A stretch of 64,000 nt of DNA from Escherichia coli (GTDB lineage: Bacteria; Pseudomonadota; Gammaproteobacteria; Enterobacterales; Enterobacteriaceae), in the NCBI RefSeq assembly GCF_050920415.1, contig NZ_CP169309.1; one strand, given 5' to 3'. Each line of letters starts with the position of its first letter. Position 1 is the first letter of the stretch. Of this stretch, positions 1-58,002 are shown piece by piece. Below the pieces are notes generated by a model, which was given only the letters and a program-made list of their open reading frames with translations, made no database searches and was not told the origin of the DNA. A program made the translations under genes and the position numbers.

Positions 1-195
1 CAGGCTGCCGTTGTGCTGTAACGCCAGCGCGTCACTATTACGTAAGCCGTCCGGGGTCTTTTCGCTGCCAGAGGCGACCGGTTTATAACCTGCCGTCCGA
101 TAACCTGCTGCCTTCGCGGCTTGTAAAAGTGCACAACTGGCGACAGTTTTCCCCACTTCGGTATCCGTTCCGGTGACAAAATAACGTTTACTCAC
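1..195 (-). CDS. bioD: dethiobiotin synthetase BioD, N-terminal part only (gene runs off the window start)
   Basis: Minus-strand translation from GTG at 193-195 reads [42 protein letters not shown]; overlaps bioC stop as expected for bioBFCD operon. Confidence 0.85.
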
Positions 196-943
196 GAGCA
201 ATCACTCCCAAAAAAAGATGATACGTCAGAGGATATCGCCCCTGTTGTTGCGGCCAGGCCAGTTGCAATCGCTGCAACTGCGAACGCGTTAATATTCGTG
301 GGTAGCGCCCTTCATGAAGATGCGTGGCACCGATGCCTTTCAGCGAACGCATGGCACTGAGCGCATCAGCAAACCACAGCGTGATGGGCTGAATATGATG
401 TTGATAATGCACGCTGTTCAGCGACTGTTCGATTTCATCTGGCGGTAAAAAGCGATTAGCATGCGGGCGCTCGTCCACCGCCTGCCACGCCTGATGCAAT
501 TCAGGGAGCGATCCCTGCACCAGCGTGGTAAACGCGACCACGCCTCCGGGGCGCACCACGCGATACAGCTCGCGAAGTGCCGTGGATAAATTACCGCACC
601 ACTGCACCGCGAGATTGCTCCATGCAAGATCGAAGGTTGCAGTCGCTAACGGCAGGGATTCGATATCTCCCGCCAGATAATGGTCTGCGGCATCCTTCTG
701 GCGTGCCTGAACAAGCATTGGCGGCGAGAGATCTAACGCTGTCACCTGCGCGTGACGTTCCCGCCAGTGGCGACTCATCCAGCCAGGTCCACAACCCGCA
801 TCCAGTACGTGGGTGTATTTACGCTGTGGGAGCATTGCCAGTAAGACGTCAGCACTCTGGCGCTGTAGATCCGCATGTTGCTCATAATGTGCGGCTGCCC
901 GACCAAATGCCGCAGCAATGGCTTGTTTATTAACCGTTGCCAT
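188..943 (-). CDS. bioC: malonyl-ACP O-methyltransferase BioC
   Basis: ORF 188..982; product [29 protein letters not shown]... matches BioC; start placed at internal Met (MATVNK). Confidence 0.9.
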
Positions 944-2084
944 GCAGCACCTCCAGCAGACGGTCGATATCCTGCATTTCATGCGCGGCGGTTAGCGTTA
1001 AGCGCAGTCGCGCAGTACCAGCGGGTACGGTTGGCGGGCGAATCGCCGTGACCCAGCAGCCTTGCTGGCGCAGTTTTTCTGCCAGTTGTAACGCACGGCT
1101 GTTATCACCGACAATCAATGGCTGGATGGCGCTGTATGAATCAGCAAGCGTAAACGGCAAATCCTGTACTCCGGCACGAAAACGCGTGATGAGTGCCGCC
1201 AGTTTTTCGCGCCGTGCATCACCCTCATCACGGCGAATGACCGCCAGCGACGCACGTAATGCCTGCGCCTGAGCGGGCGGCATACTGGTGCTGTAAATAA
1301 GATGGCGGGCAAATTGCAGTAGATAATCCGCCACCGTATCGGAGCAAAGCACCGCTGCCCCGCTGACGCCAAATCCTTTGCCAAAAGTCACCACCAGCAA
1401 TTCTGGTTTTACCTTTTGCAGCCAGCAGTTGCCGCGCCCCTGTTCACCGATAACACCCGTGCCGTGGGCATCATCGACCATCAACCAGCCATTGTGCTGT
1501 TGCGTTACCTGCTGGATTTCCGCCAGTGGCGCACTATCGCCGTCCATGCTGAACACGCCTTCTGTCACCACCAGTTGCTGCCCCGGACAGGGGGAAGCAA
1601 GCAGTCGCGCCAGATGAGCGACATCGTTATGGGTAAAACGGCGAAGCTGCGACGGGCTTAAACTGGCAGCTTCAAGCAATGAGGCGTGACTCAGCCGATC
1701 GGCAACAATACGGTCCTCTTTCGCCGTCATCGCGGTAATGACTGCCTGGTTAGCGGCAAAACCAGAGATAAACAGCAGTGCCCGCGAATAGCCCAGCCAC
1801 TCGGCCAGTTCTTCTTCCAGCGCCTGATGCGCCATGCTATAACCGCTGACGTGACCGGAACCGCCACTACCGACGCCAAATTGTTCCGCACCCTGCTTCC
1901 ATGCACGAATGATGTCCGGATGATGGCTTAAGCCGAGGTAATCATTGCTGGAAAAGTTCAGATACTGGCGATCATCCACCACCAGCCAGCGTCCGGCCCC
2001 TTGCGCCACCGGATAACGGCGACGCAGGGCATCGGCAGTACGCCGCGCATCGAGCGCCGCGTTGATTTTCTCCTGCCAGCTCAT
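930..2084 (-). CDS. bioF: 8-amino-7-oxononanoate synthase BioF
   Basis: 384-aa [18 protein letters not shown]...; PLP aminotransferase class II; operon position. Confidence 0.93.
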
Positions 2085-3121
2085 AGTGCTGCCGCGTTGT
2101 AATATTCGTCAGTGTCCGGGGTCATCAGCGCCTGTTCAAGACGTTGCTGTTGTTCGTTATCGCCCGCCAGCACGGCGGTTTGCTGCGGATTTAACCCCAG
2201 TTTGCGGAACAGTTGCAGGTCTTTATCTTCTTCCGGATTCGGTGTGGTCAGCAATTTGCAACCGTAGAAAATCGAGTTTGCGCCAGCCATAAAGCACATC
2301 GCCTGAGTCTGTTCGTTCATCTGCTCGCGTCCGGCAGAAAGGCGCACGTATGAGGTCGGCATCATGATCCGCGCTACGGCAATGGTGCGAATAAAATCAA
2401 AGGCATCGACATCATCGTTATCCGCCAGCGGCGTGCCTTTCACCTTCACCAGCATGTTGATTGGTACGCTTTCCGGCGGCGTCGGCAGGTTTGCCAGTTG
2501 CAGCAATAATCCGGCGCGATCTTTTACCGTTTCGCCTAAGCCAACAATGCCACCTGAGCAGACTTTGATCCCGGCATCGCGCACTTTTTCCAGCGTGTCG
2601 AGACGTTCCTGATAAGTGCGTGTGGTGATGATATTGCCGTAAAACTCCGGCGAGGTGTCGAGGTTGTGGTTGTAGTAATCCAGGCCGGCGTTCGCGAGGC
2701 GCTGCGCCTGAGATTCACTCAACGTGCCCAGCGTCATACACGCCTCCAGGCCCATCGCTTTTACCCCCTGCACCATCTGTTCCAGGTACGGCATATCGCG
2801 TTCGTGGGGGTTCTTCCACGCCGCGCCCATGCAAAAACGCGTCGATCCCGCCGCTTTCGCTTTACGCGCCGACTCCAGCACCTGTTCAACTTCCATCAAC
2901 CGCTCAGCTTCCAGTCCGGTTTTATAACGCGAGCTTTGCGGGCAGTATTTGCAATCTTCCGGACAAGCTCCGGTTTTAATTGACAGCAAAGTACTGACCT
3001 GCACCTGACGAGGATCGAAATGCTGACGATGCACCTGCTGCGCTTCAAACAGCAGATCCAGCAACGGTTTTTCAAATAATTCTGTGACTTGCGACAATGT
3101 CCAGCGTGGGTGGTGAGCCAT
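2081..3121 (-). CDS. bioB: biotin synthase BioB (radical SAM)
   Basis: 346-aa [44 protein letters not shown]... with CPEDCKYC cluster motif. Confidence 0.95.
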
Positions 3122-3166
3122 GGGGCTTCTCCAAAACGTGTTTTTTGTTGTTAATTCGGTGTAGAC

Positions 3167-3200
3167 TTGTAAACCTAAATCTTTTCAATTTGGTTTACAA
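3167..3200. promoter_or_regulatory. bio operator (BirA binding palindrome) in divergent bioA/bioBFCD control region
   Basis: Inverted repeat TTGTAAACC-N16-GGTTTACAA between bioB and bioA starts. Confidence 0.7.
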
Positions 3201-3207
3201 GTCGATT

Positions 3208-4497
3208 ATGACAACGGACGATCTTGCCTTTGACCAACGCCATATCTGGCACCCATACACATCCATGACCTCCCCGCTACCGGTTTATCCGGTGGCGAGC
3301 GCCGAAGGTTGCGAGCTAATTTTGTCTGACGGCAGACGCCTGGTTGACGGTATGTCGTCCTGGTGGGCGGCGATCCACGGCTACAATCACCCGCAGCTCA
3401 ATGCGGCAATGAAGTCGCAAATTGATGCCATGTCGCATGTGATGTTTGGCGGTATCACCCATGCGCCCGCTGTCGAGCTGTGCCGCAAACTGGTGGCAAT
3501 GACGCCGCAACCGCTGGAATGCGTTTTTCTCGCGGACTCCGGCTCCGTAGCGGTGGAAGTGGCGATGAAAATGGCGTTGCAGTACTGGCAAGCCAAAGGC
3601 GAAGCGCGCCAGCGTTTTCTGACCTTCCGCAATGGTTATCATGGCGATACCTTTGGCGCGATGTCGGTGTGCGATCCAGACAACTCAATGCACAGCCTGT
3701 GGAAAGGCTATCTGCCAGAAAACCTGTTTGCTCCCGCGCCGCAAAGCCGCATGGATGGCGAATGGGATGAACGCGATATGGTGGGCTTCGCACGTCTGAT
3801 GGCGGCGCATCGTCATGAAATCGCGGCGGTGATCATTGAACCGATTGTTCAGGGCGCTGGCGGAATGCGCATGTACCATCCGGAATGGTTAAAACGAATC
3901 CGCAAAATGTGCGATCGTGAAGGTATCTTGCTGATTGCTGACGAGATAGCCACCGGTTTTGGTCGTACCGGCAAACTGTTTGCCTGCGAACATGCGGGGA
4001 TCGCGCCGGACATTTTGTGCCTCGGTAAAGCCTTAACCGGCGGTACGATGACCCTTTCCGCCACGCTCACTACACGCGAGGTTGCGGAAACCATCAGTAA
4101 CGGTGAAGCTGGCTGCTTTATGCATGGGCCTACTTTTATGGGCAATCCACTGGCCTGCGCGGCAGCAAACGCCAGCCTGGCCATTATCGAATCTGGCGAC
4201 TGGCAGCAGCAGGTAGCGACTATTGAAGTACAGCTGCGCGAGCAACTCACACCCGCACGTGACGCCGAAATGGTTGCCGATGTGCGCGTACTGGGGGCAA
4301 TCGGCGTGGTCGAAACCACTCATCCGGTGAATATGGCGGCGCTGCAAAAATTCTTTGTCGAACAGGGTGTCTGGATCCGGCCTTTTGGCAAACTGATTTA
4401 CCTGATGCCGCCCTATATTATTCTCCCGCAACAGTTGCAACGTCTGACCGCAGCGGTTAACCGCGCGGTACAGGATGAAACATTTTTTTGCCAATAA
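3208..4497 (+). CDS. bioA: adenosylmethionine-8-amino-7-oxononanoate aminotransferase BioA
   Basis: ORF 3097..4497; true start at ATG 3208 ([20 protein letters not shown]...), 429 aa. Confidence 0.95.
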
Positions 4498-4555
4498 CGG
4501 GAAGTCAACGTGAGGGTTTCTGGCTACACTTTCTGCAAAAAAGAAAGGAGGTTTC

Positions 4556-5032
4556 ATGAAACTCATCAGTAATGATCTGCGCGATGGCGATAAATTGCCG
4601 CATCGTCATGTCTTTAACGGCATGGGTTACGATGGCGATAATATTTCGCCGCATCTGGCATGGGATGATGTTCCTGCGGGAACGAAAAGTTTTGTCGTCA
4701 CCTGCTACGACCCGGATGCGCCAACCGGCTCCGGCTGGTGGCACTGGGTAGTTGTTAACTTACCCGCTGATACCCGCGTATTGCCGCAGGGGTTTGGCTC
4801 TGGTCTGGTGGCAATCCCTGATGGCGTGCTCCAGACACGTACCGATTTTGGTAAAGCCGGATACGGTGGCGCAGCGCCGCCGAAAGGCGAAACCCATCGC
4901 TACATCTTTACCGTTCACGCGCTGGATGTAGAACGTATTGATGTCGATGAAGGAGCCAGCGGCGCGATGGTCGGGTTTAACGTTCATTTCCACTCTCTGG
5001 CAAGCGCCTCGATTACTGCGATGTTTAGTTAA
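4556..5032 (+). CDS. ybhB: PEBP-family kinase-inhibitor homolog YbhB
   Basis: 158-aa ORF MKLISNDLRDGDKLPHRHVFNGMGYDGDNISPHLAWDDVPAG...; lies on the bio side of attB(lambda). Confidence 0.9.
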   Translation: MKLISNDLRDGDKLPHRHVFNGMGYDGDNISPHLAWDDVPAGTKSFVVTCYDPDAPTGSGWWHWVVVNLPADTRVLPQGFGSGLVAIPDGVLQTRTDFGKAGYGGAAPPKGETHRYIFTVHALDVERIDVDEGASGAMVGFNVHFHSLASASITAMFS

Positions 5033-5122
5033 TCACTCTGCCAGATGGCGCTATGCCATCTGGTATCACTTAAAGGTATTAAAAACAACTTTTTGTCTTT
5101 TTACCTTCCCGTTTCGCTCAAG

Positions 5123-5137
5123 TTAGTATAAAAAAGC
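5123..5137. other. attR core (lambda att common core, prophage/ybhB junction)
   Basis: TTAGTATAAAAAAGC (reverse complement of GCTTTTTTATACTAA); flank reads as attB arm cttgagcgaaac on host side. Confidence 0.88.
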
Positions 5138-5282
5138 TGAACGCGAAACATTAAAAACCATTAATATCAATGCGTTACAATATCTTTAGTCTAAAAAATA
5201 GACTACATGATGCTACAAAACACAACATATCCAGTCACTATGAATCAACTACTTAGATAGTATTAGTGACCTGAGACAGAGC

Positions 5283-5322
5283 ATTAGCGCAAGGTGATTT
5301 TTGTCTTCTTGCGCTAATTTTT
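5283..5322 (+). terminator. rho-independent terminator-like hairpin just inside the prophage end
   Basis: 10-bp perfect stem ttagcgcaag/cttgcgctaa with 14-nt loop followed by T6. Confidence 0.45.
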
Positions 5323-5394
5323 TGTCAACGCACTGGGTTAGTTGAATTTACAACCATGCTCAGTTTGGTGATCTCTTTAGGTCGATTGTTATGG

Positions 5395-6435
5395 TTATGC
5401 TCTGCTTGATTCAGTGATTTTGGAATCCTGCATTTTAGTAATCATACCCATAATTTTATGCCTAAGCTTTTCCATTGGGTTTTCGATTAGATAAAAACTT
5501 ACCGCCCCAACTAAGATTGATGCTACCATCGTTGCTATATACATATAGAAACTGATTCCTACGTACCACACACCCATTGCTAGAATCAGGAAGTGCCATA
5601 GGTATATAGAGAAGCTCCATTTACCAATGTAAGACATTAACGGTGTTGACAGAGCCCAAGCAAATACACCTTCTCCATAGCTCATTAGCAGAACAATGAG
5701 TCCAAATATTGGCGCATAGAAAATAAATTTGTTGAGAACCCATCCATCAGTAAACCCACCAGTTAACTTCCACATAACTTTAGGCAGTGCAATAAGCATT
5801 GATACAATAAAGAACAGGAAGGCTATATCAGACAACTCTTGACCAATTTTAAGGAAATTATCGTGATAGAGAAATGCTGCAATCATTCCGCAAGCAAACA
5901 GTGGGAAATACCACATCACCATTCCGCCATACGCACTATCCATCGCAGGGTACAATCCCTGTAGCAATACAGCCAGTGCGAAAATAAGGAATGCCGCTGC
6001 TTTTCCATTGTACACTTTTTGAATTGCGACACCAGCATACGCAAAGAATGGAAGTATGAAGTAGAATTTATACTCAATTGGTATTGTCCAGAAATGAAGC
6101 ACGGCCTCTTTCATCGTTATGATTGAGATTGCCGTATTCAAATCAAAATACCCAAAATATGAATACACGAGAACAGCTATTGCGAACACCGGAAGGATTC
6201 TCATTGTTCTTCCAAGGAAATAACTTAAAAGAGACCGCCAGGAAAATCCGGTAGAAATAAATCTACTGGTTAGCAAAAATGCGCTGAGAACAAAGAATAT
6301 CCAAACACCAAACTGTGAACTTCCACCAAGCATAACCTCATACTCATGAAAATATATTCCTGTAGCGTGGGCTATTATTACAAGGAATACCGCTATTGCC
6401 CTTAGTCCATCAAGAGACTTGATTTTACCTTTCAT
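5395..6435 (-). CDS. acyltransferase-3 family integral membrane protein, probable O-antigen acetyltransferase (lysogenic-conversion type)
   Basis: ORF 5395..6522; multi-TM product with LDGLRAIAVFLVIIAHA motif near N-terminus; AT-rich; last gene before att, as oac in Sf6. Confidence 0.7.
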   Translation of the reverse strand: MKGKIKSLDGLRAIAVFLVIIAHATGIYFHEYEVMLGGSSQFGVWIFFVLSAFLLTSRFISTGFSWRSLLSYFLGRTMRILPVFAIAVLVYSYFGYFDLNTAISIITMKEAVLHFWTIPIEYKFYFILPFFAYAGVAIQKVYNGKAAAFLIFALAVLLQGLYPAMDSAYGGMVMWYFPLFACGMIAAFLYHDNFLKIGQELSDIAFLFFIVSMLIALPKVMWKLTGGFTDGWVLNKFIFYAPIFGLIVLLMSYGEGVFAWALSTPLMSYIGKWSFSIYLWHFLILAMGVWYVGISFYMYIATMVASILVGAVSFYLIENPMEKLRHKIMGMITKMQDSKITESSRA

Positions 6436-6518
6436 TTCTTTCCCAGATATGGAGTGAACATCTGCGAAAATGTAGCACATTTCAAGGTAAACAAGAAGCG
6501 CATCCATGCGCATTTTCA

Positions 6519-8438
6519 TCACCCTGCCTTGGTGTATGTCCAGTTAAATGTTGTTGTTCCCTGGCTTGTGATGGTTACAATCCTTCCTGTCACTGTAAAT
6601 GATATCAACCCTCCTGACTTAAGCGGAGTTAAAGTAAGTGTTGTTCCGTCCCACATGGCAAGCTGAAGCGAAGAGAAATTTGTTCCACTGCTTTCTGCCC
6701 AAACGCTTATCAGGTACATCCCTTGGCTATTTGGCAGTTCAAACAACGTAGTTGCTACGTTAGCTGCAACAGCCTGAGTTCCTTTCGCTGTGTACACTGC
6801 TGGCAACTGATTACCTGCAGAGCTTCGTGATTCAACATATGAGCCTGAAGTTTGCGTCCCAGTTAATGAGCAGTCAGTAAATACTCCATTCCCTGTGCTG
6901 TAAGTTGATATTACAGGAGTCCCACCAGTCGGAGCCTTAAACCGGCATCCCTCAGCAATTATTTTTGCTGTTGAGTCTGTCAGCAATGTGTTTGGGTATC
7001 CAGAGCCAGTGTAGGTTATTGATTCGCTATCAAGGAAGCTATCGGTACTTGATTTTATGTTAACAATGCTTGTGCCTGTTGCAAAGATAAATGCTGCTGT
7101 CCCACTCCCCGTTGTTTGCATTGAGTTTCCATGCCCGGCCAATCCTGATATATGGGCAATAGTATCATTAAGTTTTATATACGACGCAGTAATTCCATTT
7201 GTATTTTTTATTATATTAGACTCACCATCATACCCTGTAATAGTAAGACACTTACATCCAGAAAAATATAACCCTGAGGAATCAAATGTATATTGCGACC
7301 CGTCAACTGTGATCTGGTCTCCTGCACAGTTTATTAGCTGAGGAGACAGGCAATTTACAACATACCATGCCTGTGCTGCATCCAGCACATAACATGTATC
7401 CCACTGTATTGTCGTTCCGTTCGCCTTATAGAAACCATGTGCAACTCTCCTCGCCCATACCTGGGTATACTTTGTTAGGTAATTTCCAGAGTCATCATAT
7501 ATGGCCCACCATGCACCATCAACCTCAACATTTTTAATGTGCATAACGCCTGGTGAAGTAGTTCCTCCATCAATTAGAATGCCAATTTTACCATCATTGC
7601 CAGTAGGTGATGTAGGGCGTCCTCCATCGTAAAAAATATAGACATTTTCAATATTTATTGTATTAAACGCTGCGTGGTAATGGAAACAAGCTATATTTCC
7701 TATTACTGCTATGAAAGTTTCCGGCCTATTTATGTTGCTGTTTGTTTCGCCATTTATTGTGCAGTTTGAATTCATCTCTATCGTTGCATTTACGAAGTAA
7801 GTTCCAGATGTCAATAATACATTCCGCCCTGTATTAATTGCGGCCTGTATGCCTGCATAGTCAAGAGACTGAGTTAGTGATGTTACGAATGGATAAACAG
7901 CCTGCGCCGCTGATAGTGTGGAGAATTTCTCGCTGAGTGGATGCAGAGTTCCGTCAGCTGTTGCACCGAAATCCTTGGCTGAAATGAAGTTGGTATTTTT
8001 ATCATGTTGAGTTAAAGCTATTGAGCCGATATATGGCTGCTTAACTGCAACTAGTGCATCTCCCATTCCATCAGCATCGCTTTCTAACTGCTGCTTAAAC
8101 TGATCAGGGTCATACTTCAGCACATTAGGAAAATAGAACTGCCGTGCACCATACGCATTATATACAGCCATAGAATGGCCTTGCACAGTTACGAACTTGG
8201 CAATCTGTCCGTTATATACAGGGTAACCAGCGGCGTTAATGATGATTGGTTGCGAAACAGGAACGTGAGAGCCGTCTTCGTTCTCTACATAAACCTGAAT
8301 CTGGTTTTCTGGATTTACTGGGTACGTGTCAATTTTACCGATATAAATTTTGCCATTGGCAACCGCTTTAAAAGAACGCGCCATAGTGAAGAGTTGCGAA
8401 GGCATGCTTACCACAACATTTGCGGTGATATCTGACAT
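6519..8438 (-). CDS. tailspike protein with P22-like N-terminal head-binding domain and divergent C-terminal receptor-binding domain
   Basis: ORF 6519..8486; from ATG 8438 reads [61 protein letters not shown]..., matching the P22 gp9 N-terminus; SD GGAG upstream. Confidence 0.85.
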
Positions 8439-43202: not shown

Positions 43203-43421
43203 ATGTACTTGACACTTCAGGAGTGGAACGCTCGCCAGCGACGCCCAAGAAGCCTTGAAACAGTTCGTCGATGGGTGCGCGAATGCAGGATATTCCCTCC
43301 TCCGGTTAAGGATGGAAGAGAATATCTGTTCCACGAATCAGCGGTAAAGGTTGACTTAAATCGACCAGTAACAGGTAGCCTTTTGAAGAGGATCAGAAAT
43401 GGGAAGAAGGCGAAGTCATGA
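43203..43421 (+). CDS. xis: excisionase Xis (lambda-type)
   Basis: 72-aa ORF MYLTLQEWNARQRRPRSLETVRRWVRECRIFPPPVKDGREYLFHESAVKVDLNRPVTGSLLKRIRNGKKAKS matches lambda Xis. Confidence 0.95.
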   Translation: MYLTLQEWNARQRRPRSLETVRRWVRECRIFPPPVKDGREYLFHESAVKVDLNRPVTGSLLKRIRNGKKAKS

Positions 43422-44469
43422 GCGCCGGGATTTACCCCCTAACCTTTATATAAGAAACAATGGATATTACTGCTACAGGGACCCAAGGACGGGTAAAGAG
43501 TTTGGATTAGGCAGAGACAGGCGAATCGCAATCACTGAAGCCATACAGGCCAACATTGAGTTATTTTCAGGACACAAACACAAGCCTCTGACAGCGAGAA
43601 TCAACAGTGATAATTCCGTTACGTTACATTCATGGCTTGATCGCTACGAAAAAATCCTGGCCAGCAGAGGAATCAAGCAGAAGACACTCATAAATTACAT
43701 GAGCAAAATTAAAGCAATAAGGAGGGGGCTGCCTGATGCTCCACTTGAAGACATCACCACAAAAGAAATTGCGGCAATGCTCAATGGATACATAGACGAG
43801 GGCAAGGCGGCGTCAGCCAAGTTAATCAGATCAACACTGAGCGATGCATTCCGAGAGGCAATAGCTGAAGGCCATATAACAACAAACCCTGTCGCTGCCA
43901 CTCGCGCAGCAAAATCAGAGGTAAGGAGATCAAGACTTACGGCTGACGAATACCTGAAAATTTATCAAGCAGCAGAATCATCACCATGTTGGCTCAGACT
44001 TGCAATGGAACTGGCTGTTGTTACCGGGCAACGAGTTGGTGATTTATGCGAAATGAAGTGGTCTGATATCGTAGATGGATATCTTTATGTCGAGCAAAGC
44101 AAAACAGGCGTAAAAATTGCCATCCCAACAACATTGCATGTTGATGCTCTCGGGATATCAATGAAGGAAACACTTGATAAATGCAAAGAGATTCTTGGCG
44201 GAGAAACCATAATTGCATCTACTCGTCGTGAACCGCTTTCATCCGGCACAGTATCAAGGTATTTTATGCGCGCACGAAAAGCATCAGGTCTTTCCTTCGA
44301 AGGGGATCCGCCTACCTTTCACGAGTTGCGCAGTTTGTCTGCAAGACTCTATGAGAAGCAGATAAGCGATAAGTTTGCTCAACATCTTCTCGGGCATAAG
44401 TCGGACACCATGGCATCACAGTATCGTGATGACAGAGGCAGGGAGTGGGACAAAATTGAAATCAAATAA
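43399..44469 (+). CDS. int: integrase Int (lambda-type tyrosine recombinase)
   Basis: 356-aa ORF MGRRRSHERRDLPPNLYIRNNGYYCYRDPRTGKEFGLGRDRRIAITEAIQANIELFSG... matches lambda Int. Confidence 0.96.
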   Translation: MGRRRSHERRDLPPNLYIRNNGYYCYRDPRTGKEFGLGRDRRIAITEAIQANIELFSGHKHKPLTARINSDNSVTLHSWLDRYEKILASRGIKQKTLINYMSKIKAIRRGLPDAPLEDITTKEIAAMLNGYIDEGKAASAKLIRSTLSDAFREAIAEGHITTNPVAATRAAKSEVRRSRLTADEYLKIYQAAESSPCWLRLAMELAVVTGQRVGDLCEMKWSDIVDGYLYVEQSKTGVKIAIPTTLHVDALGISMKETLDKCKEILGGETIIASTRREPLSSGTVSRYFMRARKASGLSFEGDPPTFHELRSLSARLYEKQISDKFAQHLLGHKSDTMASQYRDDRGREWDKIEIK

Positions 44470-44542: not shown

Positions 44543-44557
44543 TTAGTATAAAAAAGC
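44543..44557. other. attL core (lambda att common core, int-proximal junction) with lambda P-prime arm at 44470-44542
   Basis: TTAGTATAAAAAAGC identical to the 5123-5137 copy; adjacent sequence reads as lambda attP P-prime arm. Confidence 0.88.
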
Positions 44558-44603
44558 AGGCTTCAACGGATTCATTTTTCTATTTCATAGCCCGGAGCAA
44601 CCT

Positions 44604-45887
44604 GTGAATACATTTTCAGTTTCCCGTCTGGCGCTGGCATTGGCTTTTGGCGTGACGCTGACCGCCTGTAGCTCAACACCACCCGATCAACGTCCTTCTG
44701 ATCAAACCGCGCCTGGTACCTCTTCTCGCCCGATTCTGTCGGCAAAAGAAGCGCAGAATTTCGATGCTCAACACTATTTTGCGTCCCTGACGCCGGGCGC
44801 AGCATCATGGAATCCATCACCGATTACTCTGCCTGCACAACCTGACTTTGTTGTCGGCCCGGCGGGTACTCCGGGTGTAACGCATACCACGATTCAGGCG
44901 GCGGTAGATGCGGCAATTATCAAGCGCACCAACAAGCGCCAGTATATTGCCGTGATGCCTGGTGAATATCAGGGAACGGTGTATGTCCCTGCCGCTCCGG
45001 GTGGAATTACTCTGTACGGTACAGGTGAAAAACCGATTGATGTGAAGATTGGGCTTTCCCTTGATGGGGGCATGAGCCCTGCCGACTGGCGTCACGACGT
45101 CAACCCGCGCGGCAAATATATGCCAGGTAAACCAGCGTGGTATATGTACGATAGCTGCCAGAGCAAACGCAGCGACAGTATCGGCGTTCTCTGCTCTGCG
45201 GTCTTCTGGTCACAAAACAATGGCCTGCAACTGCAAAACCTGACCATCGAAAACACGCTGGGTGATAGCGTAGATGCGGGTAACCATCCGGCGGTGGCAC
45301 TGCGTACTGATGGCGACAAAGTGCAGATCAATAACGTCAACATTCTCGGTCGTCAGAATACATTCTTTGTCACCAACAGTGGTGTGCAAAACCGTCTGGA
45401 AACCAACCGTCAGCCGCGTACTCTGGTGACCAACAGTTACATTGAAGGGGATGTGGATATCGTTTCTGGTCGCGGCGCAGTGGTGTTCGATAATACCGAA
45501 TTCCGCGTGGTGAACTCACGTACTCAGCAAGAAGCGTATGTGTTTGCACCGGCTACGCTGTCTAACATCTATTACGGTTTCCTCGCCGTAAACAGCCGTT
45601 TCAATGCTTCCGGTGATGGCGTGGCGCAACTGGGCCGCTCGCTGGATGTTGATGCCAATACCAACGGTCAGGTGGTGATCCGTGATAGCGCCATCAACGA
45701 AGGTTTTAACACGGCTAAACCGTGGGCCGATGCGGTGATTTCCAATCGTCCGTTTGCGGGTAATACTGGCAACGTTGATGATAACGACGAAGTACAGCGT
45801 AATCTGAATGACACTAACTACAACCGCATGTGGGAATACAATAACCGCGGCGTGGGTAGCAAAGTGGTTGCAGAGGCGAAGAAGTAA
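44604..45887 (+). CDS. ybhC: outer-membrane lipoprotein YbhC (pectinesterase-like)
   Basis: 427-aa ORF MNTFSVSRLALALAFGVTLTACSSTPPDQRPSDQTAPG... with lipobox LTAC. Confidence 0.93.
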   Translation: MNTFSVSRLALALAFGVTLTACSSTPPDQRPSDQTAPGTSSRPILSAKEAQNFDAQHYFASLTPGAASWNPSPITLPAQPDFVVGPAGTPGVTHTTIQAAVDAAIIKRTNKRQYIAVMPGEYQGTVYVPAAPGGITLYGTGEKPIDVKIGLSLDGGMSPADWRHDVNPRGKYMPGKPAWYMYDSCQSKRSDSIGVLCSAVFWSQNNGLQLQNLTIENTLGDSVDAGNHPAVALRTDGDKVQINNVNILGRQNTFFVTNSGVQNRLETNRQPRTLVTNSYIEGDVDIVSGRGAVVFDNTEFRVVNSRTQQEAYVFAPATLSNIYYGFLAVNSRFNASGDGVAQLGRSLDVDANTNGQVVIRDSAINEGFNTAKPWADAVISNRPFAGNTGNVDDNDEVQRNLNDTNYNRMWEYNNRGVGSKVVAEAKK

Positions 45888-45899
45888 AAGCGATTAACT

Positions 45900-46015
<116 letters not shown>

Positions 46016-46027
46016 ACATGGCGCTTT

Positions 46028-48289
46028 TTACATCTGACGGTTTTTATTGAAGTTAATCAAACTACCCGCCTTGATAATCTCGCGCTCTTCAGCAGTCAGA
46101 CTTTCCATATAGAGCGTAATCTCTGTTACCGGCGCATCTTCATGGATCACATAACCTTTAAACGTCGTCCCCGGATTATCCAGCGCCGCTTTAATGCCAA
46201 GGATGTAAATGTAATCCCCCACTTCAAACGTTGGTGCTTCCGCCATTTGCAGCGGTAACATCCCCCAGTTGATGACGTTAGAACGGTAGCGTTTAGTCGC
46301 GTATTCCTCGGCAATATTCGCCAGACCGCCAATCACACGCTGGCAGCTCGCCGCCTGCTCACGCGCAGACCCATCGCCTGGTTTCACCGCATAGACCATG
46401 CTGCCAATTTCAGTTTGCAGCGGATCAATATGCTCCTGACCAGCAATCTGCTTAATGCGCGCAAACACCTCTGTCAGCTCGCTGACATTGCCCGCCAGAC
46501 GCTGATTTTCCAGCTCGGCAGTCGCTTTACTTCTGCCAACATAACCTGGATCGCGGCGTGACAGGGTAAACTCCGCCAAACCAATCGGATTTGAACGATA
46601 AGAAGAGGTTTCACCGGAAGGAATCAATTCGTCGGTGGTGGTCACTTCGTCGAGGATCTTCGAGCACACTTTGAGGACGATATTGTCAGTCAGCGCCCCC
46701 AATTCCGGCCAGTCTTTGATGTTCGGTCCGTAGATCAGCGATTGCTGGGTCGCCCCTTTCACAAAGCCCTGATAGACGCGATTTTTATACAGCGTGACAT
46801 CGAAGGCATACTCCGGCACGATGTCCCAGCAGTCCAATTCACTTGCAGAGGTTAAATAACCACCGTTTGCGGCTGTTGCAGCGATAGAACGGGCATCCAT
46901 CAACGCCACCGCTGACATCTGACCGTTGGCTGGCTTAGAGCCTTCGCGGTTCGGGAAGTTACGCGTGGTGTGGCGAATACTCAAACCGTTGTTGATTGGC
47001 GTGTCGCCCGCGCCAAAGCATGGGCCGCAAAACGCAGTTCTGATGATTGCACCTGCGCCAATCAAATCTGCTACCACGCCTTTTTTGGCTAAATCCATAA
47101 ACACCGGCTGTGATGATGGATAAACCGCCAGCGAGAAGGTGTCATTGCCACAGGATTGACCGCGCAGCGCATTAGCTGCAGCGATAACGTTTTCATAGTT
47201 ACCGCCAGAACAGCCCGCGATAATCCCCTGCTGCACTTTCAGGCGACCATTTTCGACTTTATCCAGCAATGAGAGTTTGGCTTTCCCGTGCGCCACGCGC
47301 TCGGACTCAATTTCAATCTCACGCAGAATGTCAGTCAGGTTCTGGTTCAGCATGTCGATTTCATACACGTTGCTCGGGTGGAACGGCAGCGCAATCATTG
47401 GTTTGATGGCACTCAAATCAACGCTGATGCAGCCATCGTAGTACGCCATCGGTTGAGGGTTAAGCTGACAATAATCCTGGCCGCGACCGTGCAGCGCCAG
47501 CCAGTTATGGACTTCTTCATCAGTTTGCCAGACAGAACTTAAACAGGTAGTTTCAGTGGTCATCACGTCAACGCTGTTACGGAAATCGGTAGAGAGCGCT
47601 GCAACACCGGGCCCCACGAATTCCATCACTTTGTTTTTGACGTAGCCGTTTTTGAACACGGCACCAATGATAGCCAGCGCCACATCCTGCGGCCCCACAT
47701 ACGGCGCAGGTTTTCCGGTCAAATGCACCGCAACAACTCCCGGATAGTCGATATCCCAGGTGTCATTAAGCAGCTGTTTTACCAACTCACCGCCACCCTC
47801 ACCGACTGCCATTGTCCCTAATGCACCGTAACGGGTGTGGCTGTCTGACCCGAGGATCATTTTGCCGCCTCCTGCCATCATCTCACGCATATATTGATGG
47901 ATGACCGCAATATGCGGAGGCACAAAAATACCGCCATAACGCTGCGCTGCCGATAAACCAAAAACATGGTCATCACCGTTAATGGTGCCGCCGACGGCGC
48001 AGAGTGAGTTATGGCAGTTGGTCAGCACATACGGCAGCGGGAAACGTTCCATACCGGACGCTTTAGCGGTCTGTACAATACCAACAAAGGTAATATCGTG
48101 AGAGGCTAATGAATCAAACTTAATTTTAAGTTTATCCATATTTCCGGACGTATTATGAGAAGAGAGAATAGACCAGGCAATAGTGCCTTTTTTTGCTTCT
48201 TCTTTTTTAATTTCGCCTCTGAAATGTTCTTCGGCAATTATTTCGTTATTACTGGCGAGAAATACGCCTTTTTCAGATAACTTGATCAT
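46028..48289 (-). CDS. ybhJ: aconitase-family protein YbhJ
   Basis: ORF 46028..48313; product ~753 aa from [31 protein letters not shown]... Confidence 0.9.
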
Positions 48290-48471
48290 CAAATGCTCCA
48301 GATATCTGCGCACCGTTAAGTGCGCAGAAAGATAATAAATGGATATACTCTAAATAATTCGAGTTGCAGGAAGGCGGCAAGCGAGTGAATCCCCAGGAGC
48401 TTACATAAGTAAGTGACTGGGGTGAGCGAACGCAGACGCAGCACATGCAACTTGAAGTATGACGAGTATAT

Positions 48472-49905
48472 TTACAGCATGTTCCAGCCGATCAGCATAT
48501 TCCACCACCACACGCCGAGGGTGATATGTACCAGGAAGGTTAATATCGTCAGTACCGCACCGACCAACCACCAGGATTTAATATCGTTATAGCCTACGCC
48601 GAAGATGACCGGACCTGCCGCACCGCCATAGTGAGTAACCATGCCGCCATAGGAGTTGGAGAAAAGCAGCGCCAGCGCAGTTAACATTAACGGTGCGCCG
48701 GAGACGTTCGCCAGCATGGCAAATACCGGTAACATGGCAACGATATAGGCACTACCGGAAGCAAAGAAATAACGCACGATGATGCTAAGGAAAATAATAA
48801 CGAAGAAAGCTACGTTACCATGACCGTCAAATGCCAGGTTATTTTTAAAGACTTCAGCTAACCATTCGAAGAATTTAACTTTCGATAATAAGGAGCTTAA
48901 GCCGATAATACCGCCGTACCAGATTAAGGTATTCCAGCCGCCTTTATTTTTCACCACGTCTTCCCAGGTAACGATCCCCAGCAGCAGCATGGTCGCCATA
49001 ACAACGATTGCCACAGTGGATTCATCTACCCCGAGCGTTTTACTGAAAATCCAGCCCAGCAGCGCCAGCACGAAGACACCGAGCAGCATTTTTTCGCGGA
49101 TTTTCATCGGCCCCAGCTCAGCAAGGCCCGCTTTGGCGATGGTTTTGTTATCCACTTTCTTAATTTCTGGCGGATACATGGTGTAAATCACCAGCGGAGT
49201 GACCAGTAGCATAATGATGCCAGGCAATCCAGCAGCCAGCGCCCATCCACCCCAACTAATTTGTAGGTGCAGAATATCATTGATCATTTTCAGCGCCAGA
49301 ATGTTCCCCGCCATTGCGGTAAAGAACATATAGCTGGTGGTTTTAGTGACCATGTAAATGGACATCATCAGGTAATGTCCAACACGACGTGGGCTTTTTT
49401 CAGGTTCTGACCCCAAAGCCACCGCCACGCTGTTGATGATCGGTAACACAATGCCGCCCGCACGCGCGGTGTTAGACGGTGTTGCCGGAGCCAGTACCAG
49501 ATCGAGGAATACCGTAACGTAACCCAGCCCCAGGGTAGTGCTACCAATTTTGCCAATCAATAAATAGGCAATACGTTTACCTAACCCTGTGGTCACAAAT
49601 GCGGCACTTAAGGTAAACGCCGAGAATACCAGCCAGGTGGTACCTGAAGAGTAACCGCTTAATACGGCGGTAGTCTTAAATGCACCATCGGATAAATTAC
49701 CGACCACCACCATGGAGGCAGCAACGGCAATTAACAGTACGACAGGTTCCGGGAAAGGCTTGATAACCAGCCCCACAATGGCCGCCAGGTAAATACCAAA
49801 AAGCACCCACGCCAGTTCGCTTAATCCTGCCGGAGCTGGCATAAAGCCAATAATACATGGGATCGCTAATATCAGAATTAGCTTCCATAACGATTTCTTA
49901 TTCAT
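48472..49905 (-). CDS. ybhI: DASS-family anion:sodium symporter YbhI
   Basis: 477-aa multi-TM ORF MNKKSLWKLILILAIPCIIGFMPAPAG... Confidence 0.9.
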   Translation of the reverse strand: MNKKSLWKLILILAIPCIIGFMPAPAGLSELAWVLFGIYLAAIVGLVIKPFPEPVVLLIAVAASMVVVGNLSDGAFKTTAVLSGYSSGTTWLVFSAFTLSAAFVTTGLGKRIAYLLIGKIGSTTLGLGYVTVFLDLVLAPATPSNTARAGGIVLPIINSVAVALGSEPEKSPRRVGHYLMMSIYMVTKTTSYMFFTAMAGNILALKMINDILHLQISWGGWALAAGLPGIIMLLVTPLVIYTMYPPEIKKVDNKTIAKAGLAELGPMKIREKMLLGVFVLALLGWIFSKTLGVDESTVAIVVMATMLLLGIVTWEDVVKNKGGWNTLIWYGGIIGLSSLLSKVKFFEWLAEVFKNNLAFDGHGNVAFFVIIFLSIIVRYFFASGSAYIVAMLPVFAMLANVSGAPLMLTALALLFSNSYGGMVTHYGGAAGPVIFGVGYNDIKSWWLVGAVLTILTFLVHITLGVWWWNMLIGWNML

Positions 49906-49980
49906 TTAAAATCCTGTTCTTTCTGTATGACTCATACAGAAGTCCTTTATTGATTGTCCTTATCCTGACAACGAATATTT

Positions 49981-51033
49981 TCAGGGAAGATAAACTTCAC
50001 CGGAAAATATTTTTCTGGTTGTCCGAATAACAGATGCGCGTAACGTCGTGGCATCCTGACCTTCATTACTTAAATGAACGTCGAGTGCACCACTGGGGTG
50101 TTCAATATTGATATTGCCGTATCCTACAGAAGGGACGATTTGTCGGGTGACGGTGCCTTCCAATGCACAACTACTGGAAATAGCAATAGCACCGGTTATC
50201 GCCAGCGCGCGATGGCAAGAATGCGGCATAAAATAACGCACATTAATTGCCCCGCCTTTCTGCGCAGGAGAAATAAGCACAGGTTTAGGGATAACCATAT
50301 TACTGACATCGCCTAAGCCCATTGCTTTACCCGCTTGTAGGCGGATAGATTCAATGCGGGCTAATAATGTTTTGTCGGCATCCAGTTCCGCCGGTAATTC
50401 ATAGCCTGTTTTACCCAAATAATCAGCCGGAATAATGACGACTGGCATCGCCATATCGATACAAGTCACTGGAACATCGTCAAAATAATCAATCTGATTA
50501 TCAGTCGGGAAGACTTTTCCGGTTTTGGTTCCAGCGGCATTCAGGAAAGTGAGCGCAACCGGTGCGGCAGTACCCGGTACGCCGTCAATTCTGGCGCTAC
50601 CCTCGTACTCGACAACACCATTTGGCGTTTGCACATCAGCTTCGATGAACGTACCCGTATTGACGTTGCGGATACATACGCGGGTAACTGGCGAAGTCGC
50701 TGCAATCAAACCATTTTCAATGGCGAATGCCCCAACGCCAGACAGCATATTGCCGCAGTTAGGCGTGGTATCGACACGTTGCTCATGGACGATAACCTGA
50801 GCAAACAGATAATCGACGTCAGCACGCGGATCGCTGGAACGGCTAATTATGGCGACTTTACTGGTCAGTGGATTACCGCCGCCAATACCGTCAATTTCCA
50901 GATCGTTACCGGAACCCATAATTGCCATCAATATTTTATCGCGCTGCGTTTGATCTTCGGGTAGATGTTCCGCTAACAGGAACGCGCCCCTCGAGGTTCC
51001 ACCTCGCATCATCACGCAGGGTATTTTTTTCAT
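49981..51033 (-). CDS. ybhH: PrpF/AcnD-accessory-like isomerase YbhH
   Basis: 350-aa ORF MKKIPCVMMRGGTSRGAFLLAEHLPEDQTQRDKILMAIMGSGN... Confidence 0.9.
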   Translation of the reverse strand: MKKIPCVMMRGGTSRGAFLLAEHLPEDQTQRDKILMAIMGSGNDLEIDGIGGGNPLTSKVAIISRSSDPRADVDYLFAQVIVHEQRVDTTPNCGNMLSGVGAFAIENGLIAATSPVTRVCIRNVNTGTFIEADVQTPNGVVEYEGSARIDGVPGTAAPVALTFLNAAGTKTGKVFPTDNQIDYFDDVPVTCIDMAMPVVIIPADYLGKTGYELPAELDADKTLLARIESIRLQAGKAMGLGDVSNMVIPKPVLISPAQKGGAINVRYFMPHSCHRALAITGAIAISSSCALEGTVTRQIVPSVGYGNINIEHPSGALDVHLSNEGQDATTLRASVIRTTRKIFSGEVYLP

Positions 51034-51216
51034 AATAATGCCCTCAATTTAAAAACATAACTTATTGCGATATGGTTACATTAAGGGCAAAGCATCTCTA
51101 ATGACTTTAGCTCAACGATTAATAACATTTTTTCATTAATTTAAGTTGGCTAAATGCAGTTAAAATTTTTAACTGCCTGTCATCCAAAATCGTCGCATCC
51201 ATTTTTCGGAGTAATA

Positions 51217-52170
51217 ATGAAGCATGAATTATCAAGTATGAAGGCATTTGTCATACTGGCAGAGTCCAGTTCATTTAACAATGCTGCTAAATTACTCAAT
51301 ATTACGCAACCTGCATTAACGCGAAGAATAAAAAAGATGGAAGAGGATTTACATATTCAACTATTTGAGCGTACAACTCGCAAGGTTACGTTAACAAAAG
51401 CAGGAAAAAGGTTGCTCCCGGAGGCGCGGGAATTAATAAAGAAATTCGATGAAACGCTTTTTAATATTCGTGATATGAATGCTTATCATCGTGGTATGGT
51501 GACGTTAGCGTGTATTCCGACCGCAGTATTTTATTTTTTACCACTGGCAATCGGTAAATTTAATGAGCTGTATCCCAATATTAAAGTGCGGATTCTGGAA
51601 CAAGGCACGAATAATTGCATGGAATCGGTGCTGTGTAACGAATCAGACTTTGGCATAAACATGAACAACGTCACAAATTCATCCATTGATTTTACCCCAC
51701 TGGTCAACGAGCCGTTTGTGCTGGCCTGTCGGCGTGACCACCCATTAGCCAAAAAGCAGCTTGTAGAATGGCAGGAGTTAGTGGGTTACAAAATGATTGG
51801 CGTACGCTCCTCCAGCGGCAACCGACTTTTGATAGAACAACAGCTGGCCGACAAGCCCTGGAAGCTGGACTGGTTTTACGAAGTGCGTCATCTTTCGACG
51901 TCATTAGGACTGGTGGAGGCGGGACTGGGGATTTCGGCGCTTCCTGGTCTGGCAATGCCCCATGCACCCTATTCTTCGATTATTGGTATCCCGCTGGTGG
52001 AACCGGTTATACGTCGGACATTGGGGATTATTCGCCGCAAAGATGCCGTGCTTTCTCCGGCTGCAGAACGCTTTTTTGCCTTGCTGATTAATTTATGGAC
52101 CGACGATAAAGACAACTTGTGGACCAATATCGTCGAACGCCAGAGACATGCGTTACAGGAAATAGGTTAA
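51217..52170 (+). CDS. ybhD: LysR-family transcriptional regulator YbhD
   Basis: ORF 51154..52170; from MKHELSSMKAFVILAESSSFNNAAKLLNITQPALTRRIKKMEE (HTH), 317 aa. Confidence 0.9.
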   Translation: MKHELSSMKAFVILAESSSFNNAAKLLNITQPALTRRIKKMEEDLHIQLFERTTRKVTLTKAGKRLLPEARELIKKFDETLFNIRDMNAYHRGMVTLACIPTAVFYFLPLAIGKFNELYPNIKVRILEQGTNNCMESVLCNESDFGINMNNVTNSSIDFTPLVNEPFVLACRRDHPLAKKQLVEWQELVGYKMIGVRSSSGNRLLIEQQLADKPWKLDWFYEVRHLSTSLGLVEAGLGISALPGLAMPHAPYSSIIGIPLVEPVIRRTLGIIRRKDAVLSPAAERFFALLINLWTDDKDNLWTNIVERQRHALQEIG

Positions 52171-52210
52171 TACACCGGCGCAGGAGAGACTGCGCCGGGT
52201 GAATCAGCGG

Positions 52211-53242
<1,032 letters not shown>

Positions 53243-53360
53243 CTAAAATTAGTCGCTTTTGGCGGTGAATGCTGAATTAAAACGCAGAATTTTGTCCGAT
53301 AGTGGTATCGGTGTACCATTCGCGCAGACGAAAATTCTTAACCTTAATCTGGAATACGCC

Positions 53361-54179
53361 ATGACCACACGCGTGATTGCACTCGACTTAGACGGCACCT
53401 TATTGACCCCGAAAAAAACCTTGCTTCCTTCATCGATAGAAGCCCTGGCCCGCGCTCGCGAAGCAGGCTATCAATTAATCATCGTCACGGGCCGCCATCA
53501 TGTCGCTATTCATCCTTTTTATCAGGCGCTGGCGCTGGATACACCTGCTATTTGCTGTAATGGCACCTATTTGTATGATTATCATGCAAAAACAGTGCTT
53601 GAAGCCGATCCAATGCCCGTTAATAAAGCCCTGCAACTCATTGAGATGCTGAATGAACACCACATTCACGGTCTGATGTATGTGGATGATGCAATGGTCT
53701 ATGAGCACCCGACCGGGCATGTCATTCGCACGTCTAACTGGGCGCAAACCCTGCCGCCGGAACAGCGTCCGACCTTTACCCAGGTTGCTTCACTGGCCGA
53801 GACAGCGCAGGAAGTTAACGCAGTATGGAAGTTCGCCCTGACACACGATGACCTGCCGCAATTGCAGCATTTTGGTAAGCATGTTGAACATGAATTGGGA
53901 CTGGAGTGTGAATGGTCCTGGCACGATCAGGTTGATATTGCCCGCGGTGGTAACAGCAAAGGTAAACGCCTGACGAAATGGGTTGAGGCGCAAGGCTGGT
54001 CGATGGAAAACGTCGTCGCATTCGGCGATAATTTTAATGATATCAGTATGCTGGAAGCCGCTGGTACAGGCGTGGCGATGGGCAACGCTGATGACGCAGT
54101 AAAAGCGCGTGCCAACATTGTGATTGGTGATAACACCACCGACAGCATTGCCCGGTTCATTTATAACCACCTGATTTAA
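53361..54179 (+). CDS. ybhA: HAD-family pyridoxal phosphate phosphatase YbhA
   Basis: ORF 53259..54179; from MTTRVIALDLDGTLLTPKKTLLPSSIEALARAREAGYQLIIVTGRHH, 272 aa. Confidence 0.9.
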   Translation: MTTRVIALDLDGTLLTPKKTLLPSSIEALARAREAGYQLIIVTGRHHVAIHPFYQALALDTPAICCNGTYLYDYHAKTVLEADPMPVNKALQLIEMLNEHHIHGLMYVDDAMVYEHPTGHVIRTSNWAQTLPPEQRPTFTQVASLAETAQEVNAVWKFALTHDDLPQLQHFGKHVEHELGLECEWSWHDQVDIARGGNSKGKRLTKWVEAQGWSMENVVAFGDNFNDISMLEAAGTGVAMGNADDAVKARANIVIGDNTTDSIARFIYNHLI

Positions 54180-55238: not shown

Positions 55239-55240
55239 GA

Positions 55241-55930
55241 TTAGCGCCCCGCCCGTTCACGGCTGATTCTGGCCAGCCATTCAGAAATCAACAGGGAGAT
55301 CATCGCCAGCGCAATAGAGATAATGCACAGTCTCGCCGCACCACTTTCCCCGCCGGGGGTCTGGATCAGGGTATACATGGCTGAAGGAATGGTTCGCGTT
55401 TCGCCAGGAATGTTAGAAACAAAGGTGATCGTTGCCCCAAACTCACCAAGCGAACGAGCGAATGCCAGTACCGTACCGACGATAATTCCCGGTAAGGTCA
55501 GCGGTAACGTGATAGTAAAGAACACGCGCCAGCGCCCTGCCCCCAATGTTCTTGCGGCCTGTTCCAGTTTGACATCAACCCCTTCCAGCGCCAGACGAAT
55601 TGCCCGCACCATCAACGGAAACGACATCACGGCGGCAGCGAGAACCGCGCCACGCCAGCTAAAGGCGAAGGTAATGCCAAACCAGTCATACAGACGTTCA
55701 CCGATAAATCCGCGCCGTCCCATCGAAACTAATAACAAGTAACCGACGACCACGGGCGGTAACACCAGCGGTAGATGCAGTACGCTGTCGAGCAGAGCTT
55801 TGCCCGGAAATGTGCAACGCACCAGTAACCAGGCAAAAAAGATCCCAAACGGCAGGCTAAACAGCACAGCCAGGGAAGAAACTTTCAGGCTTAATAAAAC
55901 CGCCTGCCATTCTGGATCGGTCAGTATCAT
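55241..55930 (-). CDS. modB: molybdate ABC transporter permease ModB
   Basis: 229-aa multi-[41 protein letters not shown]... Confidence 0.95.
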
Positions 55931-56703: not shown

Positions 56704-56720
56704 TGGTAACCCCTTAATGC

Positions 56721-56868: not shown

Positions 56869-57036
<168 letters not shown>

Positions 57037-57935: not shown

Positions 57936-58002
57936 GCGTGTTGACAATTTGTTATGAAACACGTATCCCTGTCAGTAATCGCTGCAAAAAATGGGATATA
58001 AA

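Follow-up and report, generated by a model that had tools for sequence, protein, structure and literature searches.

We analyzed a 64,000-nucleotide stretch of Escherichia coli DNA (contig NZ_CP169309.1 of assembly GCF_050920415.1; the whole stretch is called the window throughout) and focused on the two genes at one end of the P22-like prophage that it carries, a tailspike gene and, behind it on the same strand, a gene for a putative integral-membrane acyltransferase of the acyltransferase-3 (AT3) family. These two genes and the spacer between them comprise the following features, given in window coordinates.

6519-8438, minus strand: tailspike gene, 639 aa
8100-8438, minus strand: P22 gp9-type head-binding (virion attachment) domain, tailspike residues 1-113 (Pfam PF09008, E=3.3e-64)
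6519-8081, minus strand: tailspike receptor-binding domain (RBD), about residues 120-639, made up of a short linker, a cap region, a right-handed beta-helix and a beta-sandwich at the C-terminus; putative endoglycosidase of the O2/O50 O-antigen
6498-6511, minus strand: GC hairpin GCGCATGGATGCGC, then TTCTTGTTT (6497-6489), a terminator-like match and putative intrinsic terminator of the tailspike/late transcript
6469-6477, minus strand: TGCTACATT, candidate extended -10 box of the AT3 gene (TGnTAnnnT columns aligned in four loci)
5395-6435, minus strand: AT3-only integral-membrane acyltransferase, 346 aa from ATG 6435 (PF01757, E=1e-23; PHROG 3333)

Evaluating the tailspike, we found that it keeps the head-binding N-terminus of P22 gp9 and departs from that protein in its central and C-terminal parts, both as a sequence-only reading of this DNA had described. 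Pfam returned no match besides Head_binding at residues 1-113, and sequence matches to P22 gp9 in the Protein Data Bank (PDB) end at residue ~117 (1lkt, 2vnl, 8tvr), with 7sg7 also matched. The match to Sf6 gp14 spans residues 1-166 (E=9e-73), and residues 146-254 resemble the N-terminal part of two Pseudomonas phage tailspikes, LKA1 gp49 and phi297 (E=8e-16). At the DNA level, the 5' end of the gene is 86-91% identical to the tailspike genes of HK620, Sf6 and CUS-3, and this homology ends at 8082-8100 (codon ~113-119), right after VLKYDPDQF, a position that on these alignments is the usual recombination joint 3' of the head-binding domain.

Structural modeling with AlphaFold2 (40 homologues; predicted local distance difference test [pLDDT] score 87.5) revealed a short helical/cap region, a long right-handed parallel beta-helix and a C-terminal beta-sandwich, such that the receptor-binding architecture is that of P22-like tailspikes. 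The fold class is clear from this model, and the specificity is fixed by no characterized relative: the solved structures nearest to the RBD share ≤19% identity with it, and the nearest sequenced-phage RBDs, besides that of the uncharacterized, prophage-derived vB_EcoP-611R6, share 39-40%, so that the domain is not that of a characterized tailspike, an identity that would have refuted the sequence-only reading. PHROG 8649 (function unassigned) matches the protein from residue 6 to its end, and invariant acidic residues such as D315, D374, E406 and D466 (full-length numbering) are only candidates for the predicted endoglycosidase activity.

The last gene before the prophage attachment (att) site had been read as an AT-rich acyltransferase with an LDGLRAIAV motif, and our analyses agree: its GC content is 0.39, compared with 0.425 for the RBD, 0.49 for the remaining prophage and 0.51-0.55 for the host flanks, and it lies 258 nt from the att core. 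Pfam Acyl_transf_3 covers residues 6-311, the match to PHROG 3333 ('O-acetyltransferase') has E=1e-37, and the protein is of the AT3-only type, with about ten hydrophobic segments and no SGNH domain. It possesses the two motifs that define functional AT3 acetyltransferases (PMC7448272), R/K-X10-H in the first transmembrane helix (R12, H23) and RXXR (R76-T-M-R79). Both motifs are kept throughout the subfamily, and H23, R76, R79, E121, H281 and E318 are invariant across 41 relatives. Its AlphaFold2 model (pLDDT 91) is all-helical, and the sole meaningful solved neighbor found with Foldseek was human HGSNAT bound to acetyl-CoA (E=0.04). Searches with the protein gave 0 matches among PDB sequences and 0 in NCBIfam, and the anti-phage defence library PADLOC likewise gave 0 matches.

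The likely start of the AT3 gene differs from the public annotation, which gives a protein of 374-375 aa from an ATG at 6519 that overlaps the tailspike TGA (TGATG). The additional 28 codons (6436-6519) take in the putative promoter as well as the terminator hairpin, and the annotated open reading frame is probably over-extended, with the start at ATG 6435. This start is preferred because the Enterobacter asburiae orthologue (88% identity) begins there, with MKGKIKSLDG, and has an in-frame TGA within the region that matches the E. coli extension. The Citrobacter orthologues have indels within this region, AT3 proteins in an alignment of relatives usually start a few residues ahead of the R-X10-H first helix, and a Shine-Dalgarno-like element, GGGAAAG, lies just 5' of ATG 6435. 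No stop interrupts the long frame in E. coli or in the viral contigs L033 and L034, and a translationally coupled 374-aa form may be made.

O2/O50 O-antigen clusters in tailspike–AT3 carriers

Searching 5426 complete E. coli genomes revealed the tailspike–AT3 pair in seven, at 98-99% identity, and all seven carry O2/O50 wzx/wzy. The O-antigen cluster of one carrier, FT130, holds 'O2/O50 family' wzx and wzy, and its wzx-wzy segment, used as query, matched 135 of the 5426 genomes (2.5% background); six of the carriers are among the 60 matches listed of these 135, and a direct check of the seventh, PSJ-23, showed it to be O2/O50 as well. The chance of seven out of seven at this background would be ~6e-12 if the draws were independent, and the carriers are not all independent. 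Their prophages occupy at least three sites, namely argW (FT130), torS-torT (PSJ-23 and EFF60) and a position beside a P4-like element (YZLc1-3), and the FT130 O-antigen cluster is a variant 3% diverged from those of the other carriers. Some cluster members in the database also carry the label 'E. coli O2'.

The window itself further supports these observations: over 11.7-13.9 kb it matches contigs of E. coli STEC_7v and of the related assembly NEMK01000004 at 99.986-100% identity, and strain 7v is the stx2g reference strain, of serotype O2:H25 (PMC3417572). Strain 7v is cited as Escherichia cryptic lineage 1 (in PMC10100065), which accounts for host flanks (1-5100 and 44600-64000) that are only about 91-94% identical to ordinary E. 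coli. As all seven carriers are O2/O50 and the window is 99.99% identical to an O2:H25 strain, the comparative data make the O2/O50 O-antigen very probably the receptor of the tailspike. The sequence-only reading is thereby supported on the receptor side, in that the phage recognizes a host surface polysaccharide, and of the two targets offered there for a presumed depolymerase, another O-antigen fits, whereas a capsule is unlikely given seven of seven O2/O50 carriers at no fewer than three sites.

In the passages of the O-antigen review PMC7685785 that deal with these types, O2 and O50 have a common main chain, to which O2 adds a D-Fuc3NAc side branch, and the O2 unit comprises three L-rhamnose residues and N-acetylglucosamine (GlcNAc) (PMC5293828). 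Because this repeat is neutral, rich in L-rhamnose and without uronic acid, any cleavage by the tailspike would be expected to be that of a hydrolase rather than a lyase. A survey that links tailspikes to O-serogroups (PMC10408124) mentions neither 'serogroup O2' nor O50. The AT3 enzyme as the cause of the difference between O2 and O50 was ruled out, as a point mutation in fdtB removes the Fuc3NAc branch according to the same passages of PMC7685785. Another observation within these clusters was that those of FT130 (L021 8705-9076) and PSJ-23 (L023 6965-7339) each hold, between the 3,4-ketoisomerase and aminotransferase genes, a gene annotated as two acyltransferase pseudogene fragments; by position this gene may be fdtC, and its splitting reflects either an annotation artefact or a lost Fuc3NAc branch.

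Linkage of RBD and AT3, and the spacer between the genes

Comparing loci across phages, we found that in all nine loci that could be placed a close AT3 relative (52-100% identity) follows, in the same direction, a tailspike gene whose RBD belongs to the same family, with a gap of 60-172 nt that is about 83 nt in most. The nine loci, with identities to the window's RBD and AT3, are as follows.

L007, E. asburiae prophage near smpB: RBD 74%, AT3 88%
L029, myovirus-type contig (Baseplate_J): RBD 76%, AT3 75%
L010, Citrobacter P22-like prophage: RBD 69%, AT3 72%
L009, Citrobacter P22-like prophage: RBD 72%, AT3 frameshifted
L028, siphovirus-type contig (tape measure, NlpC/P60): RBD 69%, AT3 52%
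L031 and L032, IMG/VR contigs: RBD identical, AT3 identical
L034, IMG/VR contig: RBD 74%, AT3 96%
L033 (1231-4535), IMG/VR contig: RBD 46%, AT3 97%

The virion adaptors vary over these loci, with P22 head-binding, Tail_spike_N and other domains at the tailspike N-terminus. Because the adaptors and the phage contexts (podovirus, siphovirus and myovirus) differ while the pairing of RBD and AT3 persists, the mobile unit appears from these sequences to be the RBD with its AT3 gene and not the whole tailspike, and this conserved linkage provides the strongest indirect support for an AT3 that acts on the tailspike receptor. The rule is limited to close AT3 relatives because it fails at ≤38% identity, where many of the relatives in viral contigs are without a co-directional upstream tailspike. 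We only tentatively extend these patterns to a cassette of RBD, terminator, promoter and AT3 that would have been swapped among podo-, sipho- and myovirus-type phages of Escherichia, Enterobacter and Citrobacter and would in E. coli make an as yet undescribed O-acetylated subtype of O2.

Some copies have decayed or changed since, such as the frameshifted AT3 gene of Citrobacter freundii (L009 6921-8022), and in E. coli EFF60 (L077 3165-4145) an IS5 separates AT3 from the att end and leaves both genes intact. The slot can also hold other cargo: in L011 (7737-11064), where the P22-like tailspike has an RBD that is 46% related, it contains genes for a reverse transcriptase and for an SMC/AAA ATPase, which resemble retron-like or other defence cargo.

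Turning to the spacer, the tailspike stop is directly followed by the hairpin and its T-rich tail, and a hairpin with other stem sequences and a T run is kept in the Enterobacter and two Citrobacter loci. About 20 nt past the hairpin, the TG, TA and final T columns of TGnTAnnnT are invariant at the aligned position in all four orthologous loci. The conserved hairpin and box together suggest independent expression of AT3 in lysogens, and on this alignment a promoter of its own is a reasonable proposal. Phase variation of the kind known from gtr and neuO was considered and rejected, as there are no tandem repeats and no cluster of Dam sites, with a single GATC far from the start.

Proposed function, alternatives and known systems

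We propose that the tailspike would attach to the virion by its gp9-type N-terminal domain, while its beta-helix domain would bind, and probably hydrolyze, the E. coli O2/O50 O-antigen and so give access to the outer membrane. In the lysogen, AT3 would probably be transcribed from its own promoter just past the tailspike terminator, and the enzyme, located in the inner membrane, would pass an acyl group, most likely acetyl, from cytoplasmic acyl-CoA to O-antigen on the periplasmic side. Antigen modified in this way would be a poor substrate and receptor for the phage's own tailspike, such that the lysogen would be protected from superinfection as well as from trimming of its O-antigen by spontaneously released virions, and its antigen would be altered. 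A modifying gene on a temperate phage, beside both the tailspike gene and att, is the arrangement of a serotype-conversion module, and the O-antigen is the probable acceptor of AT3 given this position and the linkage to the RBD. The chain as a whole, from an O2/O50 tailspike to lysogenic conversion by an O-antigen-masking AT3, seems to us reasonably probable. The earlier suggestion that the phage both recognizes and modifies one host polysaccharide is likewise strengthened by the O2/O50 type of all carriers and by the RBD–AT3 linkage across phage types, both of them comparative.

Several observations weigh against this proposal. The FFxISG motif of AT3 enzymes reads FFVLSA here (residues 47-52), with Ala52 in place of Gly throughout the AT3 subfamily, and this Gly is reported as invariant in 31 characterized AT3 acetyltransferases (PMC7448272); in the same study OafA G46A keeps full activity whereas the equivalent Oac residue, G53, is critical, and Ala52 is thus a subfamily deviation and no proof of inactivity. 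Identity to characterized enzymes is low (Sf6 Oac 25%, Sf101 OacB 24%, BTP1 GtrC 22.5%, g341c and SPN1S about 23%), and because O-antigen acetylases are only 22-25% identical to AT3 its acceptor is not readable from homology. AT3 shares the direction of the late operon, which the genes of Sf6, Sf101 and the Salmonella cases do not. An O-acetylated form of O2 is absent from the O2/O50 passages of PMC7685785, and strain 7v still types as O2, such that any modification falls short of abolishing O2 serology. Strict co-divergence of RBD and AT3 is rejected by L033 through its identities of 97% for AT3 and 46% for the RBD; either the two parts were re-assorted there or both of the diverged RBDs serve one glycan. 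Lastly, the TGnTAnnnT pattern alone is not enriched in the window (100 matches against 107 expected), and a scan for consensus sigma-70 promoters gave nothing above chance.

Of the other explanations, one would leave the tailspike specific for O2/O50 and have AT3 acylate some other glycan of the envelope (enterobacterial common antigen, colanic acid, osmoregulated glucans, peptidoglycan or capsule) or serve host physiology. This fits with the many substrates of AT3 proteins described in PMC9558356, with O-antigen acetylases being only 23-25% identical and NCBIfam assigning nothing, with the much-diverged RBD that L033 pairs with its AT3, and with a 44% AT3 relative in E. coli KTE156 (L026) that occupies the same slot behind an unrelated RBD. 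We nevertheless consider it unlikely, as close AT3 relatives were found only directly behind temperate-phage tailspike genes, in nine of nine loci, and the gene sits in the classical serotype-conversion slot. The best named matches are moreover phage O-antigen acetylases, and with NCBIfam empty AT3 matched no family for a substrate other than lipopolysaccharide, an outcome on which the sequence-only reading had made its own view depend. It is less probable again that the receptor is a capsule or other polysaccharide that merely accompanies O2 clones, with the O2 link due to clonal ancestry; indeed, this is the least probable of the alternatives. Four of the seven carrier genomes are similar in size and could be related, the P22-like phage CUS-3 targets the K1 capsule, and the RBD fold alone cannot separate O-antigen from capsule depolymerases. 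However, the carriers span at least three integration sites and two O-cluster sequence variants and include a cryptic-clade-I strain typed O2:H25 (PMC3417572), none of the 5426 complete genomes carries the pair without O2/O50 wzx/wzy, and PDB sequence and structure comparison found no endosialidase similarity in the tailspike.

A further alternative concerns expression, with AT3 made chiefly or exclusively from the late operon, of which it would be the last gene, in a 374-aa form coupled via TGATG, and acting in lytic growth, where it could for example lessen the trapping of progeny on debris. The shared direction of the two genes, the overlap of ATG 6519 with the tailspike stop, the uninterrupted extension frame of E. 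coli, L033 and L034, and the want of a strong sigma-70 promoter are all as this would predict. Yet the genes are separated by a hairpin and T run that is conserved despite different stems, the extension has an in-frame stop in Enterobacter and indels in Citrobacter, and AT3 proteins usually begin a few residues ahead of the R-X10-H helix. O-antigen turnover is also too slow to matter within one lytic cycle, and we regard a mainly or purely late role as improbable compared with expression in the lysogen.

Masking of the O-antigen by AT3 in the lysogen would be of a kind that is well known, from Sf6 Oac, Sf101 OacB, BTP1 GtrC, phiV10 and CUS-3 NeuO. The pair described here is uncharacterized and its mechanism is of the familiar Sf6/BTP1 type; what is new is modest, namely the co-transfer of the cassette across phage morphotypes and the co-directional terminator–promoter spacer. 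Like the window's prophage, Sf6 (gp14 endorhamnosidase and Oac) and Sf101 (OacB) are P22-like with a gp9-type head-binding N-terminus, an AT3-only gene separates their tailspike gene from the att/int end, and the Sf6 RBD is a beta-helix acting on a Rha3-GlcNAc-type O-antigen, as is predicted here. The RBD of the Sf6 tailspike is, however, 12-14% identical to the present one in structural alignment, and the host antigen is S. flexneri Y/X in place of E. coli O2/O50. Further, oac and oacB converge with the tailspike gene, are driven by a promoter of their own and have the integrase gene beyond them, away from the tailspike, whereas AT3 here is co-directional, 83 nt past the tailspike stop. The comparison with Sf6 oac made in the sequence-only reading therefore stands for the slot between tailspike and att and fails for the orientation.

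GtrC of BTP1 is an AT3 O-antigen acetylase on a P22-like prophage that shields the O-antigen of the lysogen from the endorhamnosidase tailspike of the phage itself, prevents superinfection and is not phase-variable; it is needed to keep long O-antigen against the tailspike of its own prophage and is sufficient to block infection (PMC4413052). The locus here resembles it in its P22-like prophage and in that phase-variation signals (repeats, Dam sites) were not found, and differs in its O-antigen and in sharing only 22.5% identity over the AT3 domain. CUS-3, likewise a P22-like prophage of E. coli, has an exchanged RBD and, beside its tailspike gene, a gene for an enzyme that O-acetylates the receptor, as AT3 putatively does here. 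That enzyme, NeuO, is however soluble, with its crystal structure solved (PMC3046976), and it is phase-variable and modifies the K1 capsule, in contrast to the integral-membrane AT3. In E. coli phage phiV10 and in epsilon15-like prophages the tailspike adjoins an O-antigen acyltransferase that blocks reinfection (PMC11854483), and that enzyme is a two-domain AT3-SGNH protein, encoded convergently on another virion type and 26-27% identical to AT3 here.

Epsilon15-like prophages of E. coli (L012-L017) encode a tail protein of 743-751 aa, whose RBD is 45-52% related, beside a convergent AT3-SGNH gene, and near-identical copies of this RBD occur on P22-type tailspikes in genomes of enterotoxigenic E. 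coli (ETEC) from pigs. The O2/O50 genome FT130 (L013, NZ_CP040090.1 1275247-1289502) holds such an epsilon15-like prophage together with the remnant of a P22-like one, and the full epsilon15-like locus with the 751-aa RBD was found in FT130 only. An O2 link for this 45%-related RBD is unsupported, as its near-identical copies reside in P22-like prophages of pig ETEC. At the other end of the scale, vB_EcoP-611R6 (ON470589) and the seven complete E. coli genomes share both tailspike and AT3 with the window at 99-100% identity, with the prophages of those seven at argW, torS-torT or elsewhere whereas that of the window is at lambda attB. In the literature vB_EcoP-611R6 is named only in a prophage survey, and its annotation, like that of the prophages in the seven genomes, is generic.

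O2 is frequent in human extraintestinal and avian pathogenic E. coli (APEC), and many of the O2/O50 genomes among the matches listed are APEC or human clinical isolates. If the O2 repeat is acetylated as we propose, about 5% of O2/O50 genomes (7/135) would have a modified antigen, which could alter recognition by antibodies, phages and tailspike-based reagents, and an O-acetylated O2 subtype could affect serological reagents and O-antigen-targeted intervention. The tailspike, having no close solved structures, is a candidate O2-specific binding or cleaving reagent, and the linkage of its RBD to a presumed receptor-masking enzyme would offer a clean case for the joint inheritance of host range and superinfection exclusion.

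Prophage boundaries and lambda-type att region

The remaining features of the prophage ends are these.

5123-5137, no strand: att core GCTTTTTTATACTAA, 15 bp, lambda-type attL/attR copy at the prophage end beside ybhB
44543-44557: second copy of the att core GCTTTTTTATACTAA, an exact repeat
5138-5330, plus strand: lambda-type attP P arm and sib/tI hairpin (stem 5286-5315, T run to 5324)
43399-44469: lambda-type integrase gene (int)

The core has two exact matches in the window against a chance expectation of 0.02, and the two copies enclose a 39.4-kb P22-like prophage at lambda attB, with bioC-bioF-bioB first and bioA and ybhB after them in 1-5032. Inside the left core, 200 bp align with lambda 27.5-27.74 kb (attP P arm and sib/tI hairpin); this P arm and hairpin form the boundary of the module toward att and are outside the moron function. 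The virion genes are of the P22 type (tail needle, gp7/gp20/gp16-type ejection proteins and tailspike), and with P22_gp16, Inj_translocase, P22_gp7 and the tail needle as its neighbors the tailspike gene stands at the end of the virion-assembly/ejection-protein block, as expected of a P22-like phage. The prophage is thus P22-like in body, uses lambda Int and lambda attB, and bears the sib/tI hairpin and an attP P arm of lambda type. In relatives that occupy argW or torS-torT, a leftover of that arm and of sib persists 3' of AT3 (e.g., L002 5990-6215), and this remnant suggests that the tailspike–AT3 unit originated in a phage with a lambda att site, similar to that of the window, and was exported from there.

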